From an uncultured Methanoregulaceae archaeon (GTDB lineage Archaea; Halobacteriota; Methanomicrobia; Methanomicrobiales; Methanospirillaceae), in NCBI GenBank assembly GCA_963705255.1, contig OY970061.1, positions 544,001 through 608,000 on the forward strand: a DNA stretch of 64,000 bases. The letters are read 5' to 3'. Made by a program: the position numbers and the translations under genes. This document shows positions 2,376-52,922 of this stretch, one piece after another. Position 1 is the first letter of the stretch, and each line of letters starts with the position of its first letter. Under the pieces are notes generated by a model that did not search any database, had not been told where the DNA came from, and was given only the letters and a program-made list of their open reading frames with translations.

Positions 2376-3632
2376 TCAGGGCGGATGATCGCCAGCCCCC
2401 CACCGTTTCCGGATCCCCTGCGCCGCCAGGTACCCGGTCGAGAACGCGACCTGCAGGTTGTAGCCTCCGGTATCCCCGTCGATGTCCAGCACTTCGCCGG
2501 CAAAAAACAGCCCGGGCACGATGGTCGATTCCATGGTCTTCTGGTTAACGCCCTCCAGCGCAACGCCGCCGCGGGTGGCCATCGCGACGGAATATTCTCC
2601 GAGCGCGGCAACCGTCAGCGGGAATTCCGTGCAGTTCGTGACTAGTTTCGATCGCTGCGCTGCCGGGAAGTGGGAGCATTTGAGGTCATCCGGGATGCCG
2701 GACAAGACCAGCAGTTTTTTGTTGAGGCGCTCCGGGATCGGGTACGCGGCAAGGATGGTCCGGACCTGCCAGCCGGGGTTCTCCTGCACGCGCTTAGCAA
2801 GGTCAGCGGCAAACTCCTCGCGTCTCATGGCGCCCACAAACGAGAGCCGGATACCATCCCCTGCCCGGATATCCCGCGATGCATCCAGGATGCCAGGGCC
2901 GGAAAGGCCAAGGTGCGTGAAGAGGAGATCCCCGGAATAATCCGCAACTTTCTTCCCGTCCCTCCAGACCGAGAACGGAAGGGACTCAAACGAGATGCCG
3001 GAGAGCGCTGCAAACGGGAAGTTGCCGATCTTCAGCGGGGCGAGTGCCGGTGCGGTCTCCGTCAGCGGCTGGCCAAGTGCTGCAGCGAAGCGGTACCCGT
3101 CACCGGTCGAGCCGGTCAGCGGATAGGACCTACCGCCGGTGGTAATGACGACTGCGCCGGCACGGTATAAGGTTGTGCCGGTCTGTACGATAAACCCCTC
3201 CTGGTCCTGCACTATCTCCTCAACCTGCTCCGCACACCTCAGTTCCACGCCCCGCTTCCCGCATTCCCGTACGAGGATCGAGAGGACGTCCGCCGAGGCG
3301 CGGGTCTCCGGGAACACTTTCCCGTCCTCACCGGCCGCCATCCCAAGGCCGCGCTCAGAAAAGAAACGGACGAGGTCGTCGTTGGTAAAACCATGGAGGG
3401 CCGGCTTGAGGAACCTGCCGTTCTTCCCGTAGTGCGATAGAAATTCAGCAACCGTGCCGGTATGAGTGATGTTGCACTGCCCCGACCCGGTGAGCAGGAG
3501 CTTGGCGCCCGGCATCGCATTTTTTTCCAGGAGCACGACCCGGCGGCCCGGCACGGCAGCATGGACTGCACAGAAGAGCCCGGCCGGCCCGCCCCCGATC
3601 ACCACGGCATCGGACTGTTCGATCGCGATCAC
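2376..3632 (-). CDS. HI0933/BaiN-family NAD(P)/FAD-dependent oxidoreductase
   Basis: GGGPAG FAD motif, GxKLLxTGxGxCNITH, C-terminal GEVLDIDGDTGGYNLQ. Confidence 0.9.
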   Translation of the reverse strand: MIAIEQSDAVVIGGGPAGLFCAVHAAVPGRRVVLLEKNAMPGAKLLLTGSGQCNITHTGTVAEFLSHYGKNGRFLKPALHGFTNDDLVRFFSERGLGMAAGEDGKVFPETRASADVLSILVRECGKRGVELRCAEQVEEIVQDQEGFIVQTGTTLYRAGAVVITTGGRSYPLTGSTGDGYRFAAALGQPLTETAPALAPLKIGNFPFAALSGISFESLPFSVWRDGKKVADYSGDLLFTHLGLSGPGILDASRDIRAGDGIRLSFVGAMRREEFAADLAKRVQENPGWQVRTILAAYPIPERLNKKLLVLSGIPDDLKCSHFPAAQRSKLVTNCTEFPLTVAALGEYSVAMATRGGVALEGVNQKTMESTIVPGLFFAGEVLDIDGDTGGYNLQVAFSTGYLAAQGIRKRWGAGDHPP

Positions 3633-7441: not shown

Positions 7442-7879
7442 TTACCTGAGGCAGCCGTCATCATGCGTTATATCCCCGCAGACACCCTGGTTCGGATGTC
7501 CCATGGCCCTGCACATCCGGTCTATGGCATCCTTCGAGACGAAACTCTCGAACCTCGAGACCTCACGGCAGGCCTGTTCATGCGAAAGACCAAAATGCGT
7601 CAGCGCCAGCGCGAGAATCCTGTGTCTTTTGATCAGGAATTCTGCCGTGATCTTTCCTTTCTCCGAGAGCGATACCCCGTAATACGGTGTGTAAACCAGA
7701 AGCCCCTCACCGGCAAGTTCGACAATGGTTTTTGTAATGGTTGAAGGGTCCACGCCAAAACCGGCGGCCAGGTCATTCGTCTTCACAGGACTGTTCTTCC
7801 CGTTCATGAATTTGATATATTCGACTTTCTTTGGCGAAAGTTCAAGCCCGGTATCCCCGCTCATGGGTACAATGTTCAT
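7442..7879 (-). CDS. DtxR/MntR-family metal-dependent transcriptional regulator
   Basis: HTH (TNDLAAGFGVDPSTITKTI), KRHRIL and GHP...CG motifs; adjacent to metal ABC operon. Confidence 0.88.
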   Translation of the reverse strand: MNIVPMSGDTGLELSPKKVEYIKFMNGKNSPVKTNDLAAGFGVDPSTITKTIVELAGEGLLVYTPYYGVSLSEKGKITAEFLIKRHRILALALTHFGLSHEQACREVSRFESFVSKDAIDRMCRAMGHPNQGVCGDITHDDGCLR

Positions 7880-8075
7880 GGGTAAACCAAAAAATGTTTG
7901 TAATCAGTCCAAAAATATCCGGGGATCAGATTTGCTTGAATGCCGTGATAATGAATTCACTTCGTGCCCGGGCATCGCGCAGGTCAGGTATCTCCGGTTG
8001 GAGTAAAAAAGGCAGAGGCACGGATGCGCTGAGTGGGAAGAAAAGGCTTTGGAGAAATCATAGGTTTTCATCTTA

Positions 8076-8371
8076 GACGCTCTGAGGGCTACGGCATCTG
8101 ATCCCTCCCCGCTGCTTAGGCATCCCCCATAGAGAGATAGTCCCTTAAAAGGTTAGTGAAAATCCTGCCGAAAATGGGGTCGCAGATTTACTTTGTAAAT
8201 CTTCTCCTCTTCGAGGTCTGAAGACCTCTCAGAGATTCAAGGGGATGCTCCCCCTGCGTTGCCCCCCTTCTGGGGGCAGACTGATGTTCCCGAAGGGAAA
8301 TCGCGGAAGGTTGTCTCTCTTTTACCATTGCGATGAACGCCGCCGCCCCCGACGGGGCGCCCCCGCGGCGG
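8076..8371. repeat. Mosaic palindromic repeat (copy 2, inverted) ending in the left-arm module 8330-8371
   Basis: Reverse complement of the 19200/28839 backbone with nested hairpins 8180-8238, then GCGATGAACGCCGCCGCCCCCG.CGGGGCGCCCCCGCGGCGG. Confidence 0.85.
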
Positions 8372-8472
8372 TTTTTATACGGTTATATTTGAAAAAACGA
8401 ATGGTAAAATTCACTTTCATTCTGCGTAATACAGATTATTAAATACAGGGATTAAGAATAGTCCATTGAGAT

Positions 8473-9096
8473 ATGGATTTGTCGATAAAAGACCGTAAAA
8501 AATTATGGAGCGCGGCTTCCGGAATATGTTCCTATCATCATAATGGCGAAAATTGTGAAAAAAAACTATTTGCAGCGAATGGAATGGTTGATACCAACCT
8601 AGGTGAAGAGTGCCATATTGTCGGTGAAAGACCCGGCGCTGCAAGATATCTAGAAAATTTTGCTGAAAAAGAGACTTCCGACAATGCAATTGTCCTATGC
8701 AAAATACATCATAAAATTGTTGATGATAATCCCGATGAATATACGGTGGACGTCCTTAAAAGAATGAAAGAGGAGCATGAACGCACAATCTCCGAAAGAT
8801 TAGCAAATCGAGAAATTGTACCATTTATATTAAATGATTGTCAGATCTTGCTTAAAGTTGATAAAGCGGAAGAAGATGTAATAGGATTAGATGTTCAGAG
8901 ACCCGCAATACTTTCGAATGTTGGTGTAAGGGTCCAAGTAGGTGAAGCCAAGACCGCAATTGGAATGAAGGTTTCAGGAGGACTTACTGTAACAATGGGT
9001 TATTGTGAAAATTGTAAAAGATATTTTAGTAAATCCTTTTCAGGTCAACAAGATACGCAAATTAAAGAATGCCCTTCCTGTCATCGACCTGTATAA
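8473..9096 (+). CDS. HNH endonuclease-domain protein with C-terminal zinc ribbon (foreign, AT-rich)
   Basis: LW..ASGICS...C...GEECHIVG..PG..R...NAIVLCKIHHKIVD...Y.VD.L..MK..HE pattern; CxxC..CxxC at C-terminus; much more AT-rich than flanks. Confidence 0.8.
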   Translation: MDLSIKDRKKLWSAASGICSYHHNGENCEKKLFAANGMVDTNLGEECHIVGERPGAARYLENFAEKETSDNAIVLCKIHHKIVDDNPDEYTVDVLKRMKEEHERTISERLANREIVPFILNDCQILLKVDKAEEDVIGLDVQRPAILSNVGVRVQVGEAKTAIGMKVSGGLTVTMGYCENCKRYFSKSFSGQQDTQIKECPSCHRPV

Positions 9097-9104
9097 AACC
9101 TTCC

Positions 9105-9148
9105 TGCCCCGCCGTGCCTCGGAGAGGCCCTGAGGCGGGGGCCTCCCC
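9105..9148. repeat. Right-arm module of the repeat family
   Basis: TGCCCCGCCGTGCC...GGCCCTGAGGCGGG matches 25185-25227 and inverted copies 52779-52822, 39206-39248. Confidence 0.85.
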
Positions 9149-9301
9149 TATCAGAATTTTCATAATTTTTTGTGGAATTATCCATCTTTTTCGTTTCAAC
9201 CGAACATGGTGAAGAAACTGGATCGTCCCAGCCGGTACAAGTGGACCTCCACGCTCAATCCGAAACCGCTATATCGGGCGATCATTCATAGAGATGTGAC
9301 T

Positions 9302-10054
9302 ATGGAACACATACAGGTCATGGGTGTGCAGGGACTGCCGCTCATCCATGCGGGCGATAACATTGCAGCAATGATCTGCGAACGCGTGCCGGTGCGGGAC
9401 AACGATATCCTCTGCATCGCATCGACCATCTATTCCAAGGCCCGGGGGTACACAAAACTGCTCTCCGCCATCACCCCTTCAGAGCGGGCCGTGCGGCTGG
9501 GGAACCTGAACGGCGAGGACCCGCGTTTTGTCCAGGCCGTGCTGGACGCGTCCACGGACGTCATCATGGAGCACCCCTTCATCCTCTCCGAACTCGCGTT
9601 CGGGCATGTCGGCGTGAGAGCCGGAGTGGACCAGTCCAATATCGAGGACGGCATGGTCATCTTCCTCCCTCCGGACCCCATGAAATCGGCAGACGAAGTA
9701 CGGGCTGAAATCCGTTCGATCGCCAATGCGGATACCGGCGTGATCATCACCGATACCTGCGGGAGGTCATTCCGCCGCGGCCAGACCGGCAACGCCATCG
9801 GGTGGAGCGGTTTTCCGGCAATCCGGGACTTCCGTGGCGACACAGACCTGTTCGGGCACGTGCTCAAGATCACCGAGGAGGCGGTCGTGGACGAGATCGC
9901 CGGGTTCGCCAACTTCGTGATGGGGGAGAGCAACAATGGTGTCCCCGCAGTCGTCTTCCGCAACTGCCCGAAGTGGACCGGTCACGACAGCCTGTATTTT
10001 ACGAACAACGAGGATATCACAAAACGCGTGCTGAAAAAAGAGTGGGGTCAGTAG
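9302..10054 (+). CDS. cofE: Coenzyme F420-0:L-glutamate ligase
   Basis: GLPLIHAGD, AGVDQSN, VIITDTCGRSFRRGQTGNAIG, DFRGDTDLFG motifs; start ATG 9302. Confidence 0.93.
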   Translation: MEHIQVMGVQGLPLIHAGDNIAAMICERVPVRDNDILCIASTIYSKARGYTKLLSAITPSERAVRLGNLNGEDPRFVQAVLDASTDVIMEHPFILSELAFGHVGVRAGVDQSNIEDGMVIFLPPDPMKSADEVRAEIRSIANADTGVIITDTCGRSFRRGQTGNAIGWSGFPAIRDFRGDTDLFGHVLKITEEAVVDEIAGFANFVMGESNNGVPAVVFRNCPKWTGHDSLYFTNNEDITKRVLKKEWGQ

Positions 10055-25078: not shown

Positions 25079-25229
25079 TGGGGGTTGAGACCCCCATTCC
25101 CCCTTCGCGATGAACGCCGCCGCCCCCGGCGGGGCGCCCCCGCGGCGGGTTGATTGCCTGTTTTCTAAAATATGATCGGTAATTTGCCCCGCCGTGCCCC
25201 GTAAGGGGCCCTGAGGCGGGAGTCCTCAC
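25079..25229. repeat. Left arm - 36 bp spacer - right arm repeat (copy 5)
   Basis: Left arm 25107-25148 and right arm 25185-25227 match 8330-8371/9105-9148 and the inverted copy at 52779-52920. Confidence 0.88.
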
Positions 25230-28738: not shown

Positions 28739-28838
28739 TCGCCCCTTTTTAAAAATGCCGATTGAATAATTTGCATAAATTCCGGTTTTGTTGAAACCTT
28801 TTTCTGATCATTTGCTTATACTATTCTGCTGCGGTTAG

Positions 28839-29120
28839 GAGTGTGACCCCCTCTCTCAAATCGAAGAACACTCCGGGTTCGATCGAAGACCTGCGGTCTT
28901 CTCCTGTCTCAAGTCTGATGACTTTCGACATTCTCCAGCCTACTCTTCCCTTCGGGAACAGCAGTCTCCCCAGAGGGGGAGGCAACGCAAGGGGAGCGTC
29001 CCCTTGACCCCCCTTTTTTCGGCAGGATTTTCACTAACCTTCTGAGGGACTATCTCTATATGGGGGCTGCCCAAGCGGCGGGGGCGGAAGCATGAAGTGC
29101 TGGAGCCCCCAAGAGCGACT
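28839..29120. repeat. Mosaic palindromic repeat (copy 6)
   Basis: Same backbone as 19200-19410 with a ~111-bp hairpin insert 28858-28968; 44 bp (28897-28940) identical to 62401-62444. Confidence 0.88.
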
Positions 29121-29343
29121 TCTAGTTTCCTTGAGGATTTCAGCATTTTTGCCTGAACTCCATTTCCGGTTATTCTGTATCGCGATCGTTCCGCGGTTAA
29201 GTCAGATTACCTACCATGTTATTTCGCTTTTTGATTCTCGTAATCTCTGCTTACGCTGCCGAAAAACACAGTTCGGTTTTGTATATGCCATATCGAAACC
29301 TATTTTTTGTCTTTTGAGAAACATATACGATGGAGTGAATGAG

Positions 29344-39205: not shown

Positions 39206-39465
39206 GAGTGCTCCCCGCCTCAGGGCCCTCAACGGGCACGGCGGGGCAGGGAGGTTTTTCAGTCACAAATCTGTAATGAGGAGCCGGTCGTCGCACCAGT
39301 GAGGGACGATTAATTCCCCGCCGTTCGGGCATCCCCTCATGGCGATATTCTCTCATAAGGTATACGGGACACCATCGGAAAATTCCCTAGCGGGTAATAC
39401 CGAGGAATCGCTCAGCGCAGGGGTGGGTCAAGGGAGGGGACAGGCACTGTCCCCTCCCTGATTGC
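39206..39465. repeat. Mosaic palindromic repeat (copy 7)
   Basis: Inverted right arm 39206-39248; TTAATTCCCCGCCG..GGCATCCCC shared with 3910-3937; GGTAATACCGAGG shared with 41649-41661. Confidence 0.75.
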
Positions 39466-52778: not shown

Positions 52779-52922
52779 GAGTCCTCCCCGCCTCAGGGCC
52801 CCTCGCGGGGCACGGCGGGGCAAGGAGTTTCCCGAGATTTTAGTTCCTGATCCGCCGCGGGGGCGCCCCGCCGGGGGCGGCGGCGTCTATCATAATGGGG
52901 GTATGGGGGTCTCAACCCCCAT
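52779..52922. repeat. Left arm - 29 bp spacer - right arm repeat (copy 9, inverted)
   Basis: Reverse complement of 25079-25229 with a different spacer (52823-52851). Confidence 0.88.

Follow-up and report, generated by a model that had tools for sequence, protein, structure and literature searches.

How does a complete gene come to lie between two hairpin arms that elsewhere are parted by a few dozen nucleotides? The question is raised by a locus in a 64-kb stretch of DNA (the window) covering positions 544001-608000 of the genome of an uncultured Methanoregulaceae archaeon (G000, the host genome), a single contig of 2,600,650 bp with a completeness estimate of 89.5%. At 8330-9141 of the window, a left arm (L) and a right arm (R) enclose DNA with a gene for an HNH-type protein, HNH1. 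We found that the arms belong to a hairpin repeat spread through the genus Methanoregula, that a second, independent arm pair in the same genome also encloses a gene, and that the arm-gene-arm package lies at a different place in a related genome, so that the repeat seems to be both a docking site and a vehicle for single genes. The explanation we put forward, with confidence evenly divided between its being right and wrong, is that the locus is a copy of a non-autonomous mosaic repeat carrying cargo, and that this copy spread when repeat copies recombined or underwent gene conversion with one another. L and R would be the left and right hairpin modules of a Methanoregula-specific repeat resembling repetitive extragenic palindromic (REP) sequences, bacterial interspersed mosaic elements (BIMEs) and REP doublets forming hairpins (REPINs). 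The spacer between L and R would be the variable point of this element, filled at 8330-9141 by a complete, foreign-looking gene. Because the arms exist in dozens of copies across genomes of the genus, they could act as portable homology; recombination or gene conversion of a filled copy, whether incoming or resident, with any other copy would then transfer the DNA between the arms.

Genes enclosed by paired hairpin arms

The initial annotation had delimited the two arms, a 733-nt interior, a single open reading frame (ORF) and a stop codon shortly before R. All of these were confirmed to the base (Table 1), as were the spacers of two further copies in the window, as delimited there. The interior is AT-rich, as had been claimed, with a GC content of 34-41% across 8400-9100 against 52-63% in the flanks. 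A 37-nt pattern for L matched three times in the window and never in 100 dinucleotide shuffles, and an R pattern with a fixed 7-nt loop matched twice in the window and not in the shuffles; the fixed-loop pattern overlooks two window copies of R with 8-nt loops and picks up a solo R arm. A chance origin of the arm matches is excluded.

Where the gene sits was read from the spacers of other copies. There are 34 junctions between the 3' end of L and the 5' end of R in the host genome, and 10 of them have a conserved spacer of 12-13 nt, (T/A)TCAACyyyCTTG; in most copies the inter-arm spacer is 12-65 nt of AT-rich filler. Spacers of greater length seem to consist of these two ends and AT-rich filler separating them. 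The HNH1 composites have the first 2-3 letters of the conserved spacer after L and the last ~10 before R. As the spacer ends thus flank the insert, the HNH1 gene sits inside a conserved L-R spacer. The cargo apparently brings its own promoter, a putative TATA-like box (ATTATTAAATA) 28-38 nt upstream of the ATG; about 45 nt before the ATG are conserved in a homologue on a metagenome contig (L151).

A second cargo was found at position 1796036 of the host genome, where L is followed by AT-rich DNA with a 248-aa ORF (HNH2, 1796150-1796896) and then by an alternative right arm (R'). An empty counterpart, the same L...R' pair, stands at 2107099. HNH2 has two homing endonuclease associated repeats (HNH_repeat) and HNH in Pfam, and BLASTP detected no relation between HNH1 and HNH2. 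The initial annotation had named the absence of any other gene-carrying arm pair genome-wide as evidence against itself; HNH2, between L and R', is such a pair.

Other genomes were surveyed with a one-genome-per-species scan for L, which yielded at least 120 loci (full 2-kb flanks in 80 of the listed loci). These contain 123 L arms, 66 of them with R or R' within 250 nt. Among the matches listed, the only clear gene-sized inter-arm insert comes from the Methanoregula metagenome-assembled genome (MAG) of another species (L105), in which L and R enclose 336 AT-rich nt with, by our own reading, a small hydrophobic ORF of ~58 aa on the reverse strand; cargo is therefore rare. With HNH2, this insert and the moved packages described below, the earlier view of the arm pair as a recurring unit able to hold a whole gene was borne out.

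Table 1. The gene-bearing composite, its modules and related copies, in window coordinates
Feature	Position	Strand	Remarks
Repeat copy of family B with small hairpin modules	8045..8299	-	directly left of the composite; not at this locus in the closest relative compared (G025)
Leader module U, variant 2	8300..8329	+	stands before L in a number of copies
L arm, GC-rich two-tier hairpin	8330..8371	+	21 genome copies; DNA folding energy -15.5 kcal/mol
5' part of the cargo, AT-rich	8372..8472	+	TATA-like ATTATTAAATA at 8435-8445; sequence reading
HNH1 gene, 207 aa	8473..9096	+	TAA stop ending at 9096, 8 nt before R
Short-spacer remnant AACCTTCC, continued by TG	9097..9104	+	spacer normally joining L to R
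R arm, two-tier hairpin with covarying inner stem	9105..9141	+	fold and covariation
Degenerate AT-rich D module	9142..9205	+	D follows R in ~20 copies; read by eye
'Empty' U-L-spacer-R copy, arms 36 nt apart	25107..25227	+	sequence reading
'Empty' U-L-spacer-R copy, inverted, arms 29 nt apart	52779..52893	-	sequence reading
Solo R arm	39214..39248	-	R-pattern match; inside a stretch aligning at 96% with G025

Several details of the surroundings were also recorded. A candidate terminal inverted repeat of 8 nt at the ends of the HNH1 insert (TTTTATAC / GTATAAAA) was rejected: the final codons of the gene make up its right half, and the left half is not kept in L151. The neighbours of HNH1 are a DtxR-type repressor (7442-7879, minus strand) and an F420-0:gamma-glutamyl ligase. 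The long ORF of the ligase includes 9170-9302, where homology with G025 starts only at 9258 and the Pfam domain begins at residue 56 of the protein; the true start is probably the ATG further on at 9303, which places the D-like tail of the composite in intergenic DNA. Leaders similar to the one before L, ending TTGCGATGAA, are present at host-genome positions 244927, 352418, 782614, 1646051 and 2107099. Family B is a second dispersed repeat of ~100-250 nt, with a core made up of a GC-rich stem around GGGGGATGCCCCAGCGGCGGGGG and an end near AATGAAAACC, and often adjoins modules of the L/R family. The copy next to the composite matches host-genome positions 2577657-2577914 at 82% and also G025:C6, and more than 10 further copies exist in the host genome.

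The package at non-orthologous loci

L151 carries an 84% homologue of HNH1 with one frameshift, preceded by a leader and L and followed by R and an AT-rich tail; R starts 9 nt past the stop (8-10 nt in both HNH1 copies). By BLASTN, 2378-3167 of this contig and 8327-9141 of the window match at 85.4% of 817 nt, an alignment that begins with the opening bases of L and ends with the closing bases of R. The sequences flanking it in L151 correspond to host-genome positions 1631763-1634097 (86%) and 1636856-1639218 (92%), 1.08 Mb away, and between these matches the host genome has 2.76 kb of other genes. Leader type and tail differ between the two composites.

HNH2 was also found at another place. 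In a related genome (G102), an 84% homologue lies between a partial or degenerate L and a variant of R', with 81.5% identity to the host genome over 943 nt. Its flanks map to host-genome positions 912010-914881, where only a 247-nt mosaic with an inverted L and nested modules is present. At the left junction of the G102 copy (L163 1395-1430, compared with G000:C1 913320-913470) we read a reverse-complement spacer start, the palindromic core of L and the 3' half of L. It looks as if an incoming L had recombined with the resident inverted L inside the palindromic loop.

These recurrences bear on an alternative, that L and R landed independently beside a resident gene. Of the 51 R 3' halves in the host genome, some 30 have no plain L nearby, as independent landing would allow, though many follow an L split by modules, and distant homologues of the genes are without arms. 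Yet order, orientation and distances agree between two genomes for HNH1 and likewise for HNH2, and conserved ends of the short spacer flank the insert. We find such a coincidence scarcely credible.

The closest relative compared, G025, is 92-98% identical in the flanks of the HNH1 locus and gave no match to any of three HNH queries. The comparison with close relatives that the initial annotation had suggested shows it to be without the composite: its 160 nt opening with a canonical solo D module correspond to window 8034-9258, the stretch with the inverted other repeat, the leader and tail, both arms and the gene. On a 14-kb metagenome contig with this kind of allele, 7967 and 9258 are joined by 224 nt of different sequence. 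Metagenome joints from 8371 to ~9105 with 23-36 other letters were considered as empty alleles and proved to be other copies of the repeat. Where the host genome has HNH2, G025 shows a different gene; before it lie, in order, L (two modules nested in it), a spacer, R (also with nested modules) and a partial D. In its counterpart of the element at 25107, the leader U, the outer stems and the right flank are kept; L is shorter, the spacer has no relation to that of the window copy and R includes two additional modules. At the locus of the 52779 element, the whole intergenic stretch of 342 nt is replaced by 80 unrelated nt. The differences at these orthologous loci indicate that the interior of the element, above all its spacer, is exchanged in place on a short time scale. 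Target duplications, terminal inverted repeats and clean insertion junctions were absent from the loci compared with G025.

From the arm-bounded homology, the swapping of spacers in place and the absence of a dedicated enzyme, we infer that transfer takes place by homologous recombination or gene conversion, with the nuclease presumably as cargo and not as motor. Several observations weigh against this explanation. No recombination event was directly observed, and the two loci that are polymorphic against G025 are wholesale intergenic replacements and not clean arm-bounded exchanges. The left arm of the G102 package is partial. Two of the three inter-arm genes encode HNH nucleases of unrelated families, and for a third HNH gene (258 aa) the surrounding AT-rich island directly adjoins an inverted L-R copy, with a D-like module after it; this excess of HNH genes is beyond passive random capture and points to an active role of the nucleases. 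Moreover, homologues of HNH1 in G019 (60%) and G073 (55%), and a homologue of HNH2 in G117 (76%, with an internal TGA and adjoining a tRNA gene), are without arms. None of 10 metagenome loci with distant relatives of HNH1 (34-49% identity) has arms either. The more distant homologues of both genes being armless, the link to the arms is young in each family. The initial annotation had held that relatives with the HNH gene and no arms would speak against it. Such relatives do exist at 55-60% identity for HNH1 and 76% for HNH2, whereas the 84% homologues are armed, and it thus appears that in each family a single capture took place and the composite spread afterwards.

A mosaic family of hairpin modules

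L and R are built alike: an inner hairpin stands on an outer stem of 6-7 bp, and 5 nt bulge out on the 3' side. Their fold z-scores are modest (-1.9 and -2.3), because GC-rich shuffles fold too. One pair of the inner stem was followed through 39 distinct R copies of the window and other genomes: it is U-A in 22, C-G in 16 and U-G in one, and never unpaired, which argues that the hairpin itself is maintained. We counted 21 L arms in the host genome, along with 51 R 3' halves. A canonical R lies 31-161 nt downstream of 15 of the 21 L arms, a degenerate R follows one, and R' lies 42 nt downstream of another (2107099); two are followed by a gene and then a right arm, and two have no partner. Many copies have further small hairpin modules, from one to several, interrupting the outer stems of L or R. 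A conserved tail of ~75 nt, D, is often present 3' of R, and several types of leader U precede L. L is also joined to quite different modules, and long versions exceed 400 nt. L and R are two modules of a much larger Methanoregula-wide mosaic family, not a closed pair, a context that the initial annotation had missed. Repeat-rich regions number ~341 in the host genome.

Among further genomes of the genus, 33 of 36 contain L, and it was missing from all 24 genomes that represent five further families of the order. Among the matches listed, the titles of the at least 120 loci from the species scan are nearly all those of Methanoregula, Methanoregulaceae or Methanomicrobiales MAGs; the remaining three are a Methanolinea, a 'Nitrospirota' bin and a Sorangium record. 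The Nitrospirota-titled MAG contig (L080) and the Methanolinea MAG (L092) have exact L-arm matches, and L080 has an R arm ~35 nt downstream of L. These two cases may reflect mis-binning or a broader host range. Viral contigs gave no exact match to the L pattern.

A maintained hairpin could also act in RNA. The arms might serve as an upstream insulator or terminator hairpin with a T-run and as a 3' stabiliser, kept by selection and not by mobility, an idea that we rate as highly improbable. It agrees with the TTTTT after L, with the position of R just past the stop in both HNH1 copies and with the compensatory change that keeps the inner stem of R paired. By the same reasoning the arms would be kept around foreign genes for making them expressible or harmless; other AT-rich genes do adjoin modules of the family. 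However, a role in RNA leaves the arm-bounded homology at non-orthologous loci unexplained, and the elements lie in both orientations to neighbouring genes, in divergent as well as convergent gaps. There is also no Rfam match: a scan of 8000-9400 at E ≤ 10 returned 5 chance-level matches only, all far under the gathering scores.

Two further ideas about the repeat were tried and rejected. A C/D-box or kink-turn reading of the arm motif GATGAA ... CTGA fails because the base opposite the bulge is T and the sheared G-A pair needs A. The repeat is not a general border of AT islands, since most of 180 low-GC islands do not adjoin repeats. In addition, L is joined to another hairpin module, M (GCGCAAAAC...GTTTTGCGC), in L097 (2000-3000) and at G000:C1 71785-72400. 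This composite lies 5' of a conserved AT-rich gene of ~158 aa in two species, and in L097 it is repeated after the gene, giving an array-like layout.

Nucleases, candidate enzymes and known systems

HNH1 comprises, in order, an N-terminal Cap5-type HNH domain, a beta-rich domain and a C-terminal CxxC...CxxC zinc ribbon. Pfam reported a weak C-terminal zinc ribbon alone. With the PADLOC defence profiles, residues 1-112 match the HNH domain of SAVED-HNH (Cap5) at E 6e-20. A model built from ten family members, with a predicted local distance difference test score (pLDDT) of 70, matched Cap5 structures in Foldseek at E 4e-6 over the HNH part only; for the C-terminal beta domain of this model, of moderate quality, Foldseek gave no structural match. 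H48, N71, H79, H80 and two CxxC pairs are invariant in the family. HNH1 thus resembles Cap5 in its HNH domain, by profile and by fold, and differs in being 207 aa long against ~370 and in having no SAVED sensor domain. No cyclase or CD-NTase (cGAS/DncV-like nucleotidyltransferase) gene lies beside it, and it is not a cyclic-oligonucleotide-based antiphage signalling (CBASS) system. Relatives are few, 12 among 5.8 billion proteins at E ≤ 1e-5, with matches in 5 of 107 other genomes of the genus. Judging by the ratio of nonsynonymous to synonymous substitution rates (dN/dS), which is 0.20-0.30 in three comparisons, HNH1 is under purifying selection.

The nature of the cargo raises the possibility of homing. 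Free-standing HNH homing endonucleases would target the empty L-spacer-R, and repair from a filled copy would carry along the gene with arm sequence. Consistent with homing, HNH2 combines homing endonuclease associated repeats with HNH, two of the three inter-arm cargos are HNH genes, and all four HNH-type genes of the host genome lie in mobile-looking settings. The gene is inside the conserved 13-nt spacer, of which 10 unoccupied copies exist. The non-orthologous loci, with homology ending in the arms and with U and D differing between the host genome and L151, are as expected of co-conversion tracts. Decay as in an invade-decay cycle is seen in the frameshift in L151, the TGA in G117 and stops in G126, and purifying selection on the coding sequences (dN/dS 0.15-0.30) would fit as well. 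A free-standing HNH homing gene is known in T4 mobE (PMC2790892). On the other hand, each HNH gene is single-copy in the host genome, where no fewer than 10 nearly identical short-spacer sites are unoccupied, out of a total of 34 empty junctions. The nuclease domain of HNH1 is nearest to Cap5, an anti-phage effector rather than a site-specific enzyme, one cargo (L105) is not a nuclease, and homologues of 55-76% identity occur without the arms. Weighing these points, we consider homing unlikely, but the strongest of the rivals.

A related proposal, which we regard as distinctly unlikely, is that the repeat and the HNH genes form one system, an undescribed archaeal mobile element. The HNH proteins would recognise the bulged hairpins or the junction, cut unoccupied copies and so drive gene conversion. 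If true, this would account for the spread of the nucleases, the mosaic reshuffling and the near-identity of 'empty' repeats across Methanoregula, and the HNH nuclease would be the counterpart of the REP-associated tyrosine transposase (RAYT) for REPINs.

A dedicated mobilising enzyme was sought in the window and in the host genome. Among 59 window ORFs compared with Pfam at E ≤ 1e-5, no recombinase or transposase was detected, and at this level the initial annotation was right that the window has no recombinase. A co-occurring Y1/HUH transposase, which it had suggested looking for, was not found: PF01797 had no match in the host genome, and the control was positive in 6 of 14 reference genomes. 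The host genome has one tyrosine recombinase (PF00589, 2540082-2540543), ~2 Mb from the HNH1 locus, and copies of the repeat are dispersed, so the suggested likeness to integrons did not hold. Three TnpB-like matches, at 1.82, 2.04 and 2.54 Mb, are not near any L or R cargo locus. Hence, from the notion of a composite that acquires cargo, the cargo survives and membership of an integron or HUH system does not.

This search bears on a third way of moving genes, in which the repeat is a non-autonomous transposable element moved in trans and L-gene-R is a copy with a passenger, as in mobile insertion cassettes. In favour of this are the dispersal of the repeat, its near-identity in different species and its presence in some but not all close relatives; the common architecture of L and R, with its 3' bulge, would be readable by a structure-specific enzyme. 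Bacterial cassettes of such a kind are known (for example PMC5444012). But no Y1/HUH transposase and no nearby recombinase was found, and terminal inverted repeats or target duplications were missing at the loci compared. A whole transposed element should also bring both leader and tail, and these differ between the two HNH1 composites. Mobilisation as a cassette is accordingly quite improbable in our estimate.

Mobile insertion cassettes are elements like miniature inverted-repeat transposable elements (MITEs) with a passenger gene. The composite resembles them in that ends of a non-autonomous repeat bracket a single non-transposase gene and in that short 'empty' relatives are far commoner. 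It differs from them in having structured hairpins as ends, and no terminal inverted repeats, target duplication or insertion sequence (IS) with a cognate transposase was found. Unlike in IS200/IS605, no TnpA (Y1) is present in the host genome and the TnpB-like matches are not beside cargo.

BIMEs are mosaic combinations of REP palindromes with other motifs. The repeat shares with REPs, BIMEs and REPINs its short, GC-rich, imperfect palindromes, an intergenic location, two hairpins with a spacer, a mosaic make-up, dozens of copies, lineage specificity and non-autonomy. It differs in its archaeal host, whose genome, 89.5% complete by estimate, yielded no RAYT/Y1 gene. In contrast to REPINs, L and R have different sequences, are direct and not inverted, carry the bulge on the same side and have hairpin modules nested in their stems. 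To our knowledge there is no report of a whole gene in a REPIN spacer, although no literature search was aimed at this point. In PMC3337134, REPINs are presented as spacer-separated pairs of REPs that exploit RAYT.

With free-standing HNH homing genes such as T4 mobE (PMC2790892), the composite has in common a small self-contained ORF between conserved sequences, a patchy distribution, decayed copies and flanks that move along. Insertion into a conserved site that exists unoccupied elsewhere is a further likeness. Unlike theirs, its flanks are a multi-copy dispersed repeat and not a unique gene, the HNH genes are single-copy and site-specific cleavage is putative. Integron cassettes (attC) likewise are single genes bounded by bulged-hairpin palindromes, with diverse, AT-rich cargo. 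By contrast, the present copies are dispersed, with no arrays in the host genome, no adjacent integrase and an apparent promoter of their own; the hairpins on both sides of the gene are two halves of one element. By eye, attC core sites (RYYYAAC ... GTTRRRY) were not seen in L or R.

The kinds of element involved are already known: REP/BIME/REPIN repeats, MITE-like cassettes with passengers, and free-standing HNH homing genes. What is new is their combination in an archaeon, the nesting of whole genes in the spacer of a two-hairpin repeat and the recurrence of the package with no recognisable transposase. Searches of the literature on Methanoregula repeats, on archaeal HNH genes and miniature repeats and on free-standing homing genes turned up no description of the package among the papers listed, and those listed for homing genes included no such gene within a dispersed repeat.

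Dispersed hairpin repeats of prokaryotes are usually taken as empty, non-coding passengers. Here the spacer repeatedly holds genes and the package reappears with its hairpin borders, and the repeat could therefore serve as docking sites. Being multi-copy, it could offer such sites genus-wide, and single accessory genes might move between loci and strains with no dedicated integrase. The enzymology of archaeal mobile elements is thin and no RAYT-like partner was seen, which makes cutting of the empty repeat by HNH a concrete question. The findings also bear on the fast intergenic turnover between close methanogen relatives.

Some minor observations concern the rest of the genome. The sole CRISPR array (30 repeats with a period of ~66 nt, G000:C1 504944-506886) was considered for self-targeting, and none of its spacers matches elsewhere in the genome. 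An ORF for a HepT-like ribonuclease, the toxin of a HepT/MNT-type pair, lies at 1493-1840 of the window on the minus strand. At 28781-29292 of the window there is a 511-nt block of dispersed repeats with many partial matches across G025, which has ~2.8 kb instead at the orthologous place. Finally, a fourth HNH-like gene (283 aa) was found in a 1.15-kb AT-rich island at G000:C1 2112630-2113778 (L006 ~830-1980). This island is bounded by near-perfect 24-bp inverted repeats unlike the L/R family and may represent another small element family with an HNH gene; the same 24-bp end sequence borders a 5.7-kb AT-rich island at G000:C1 831773.

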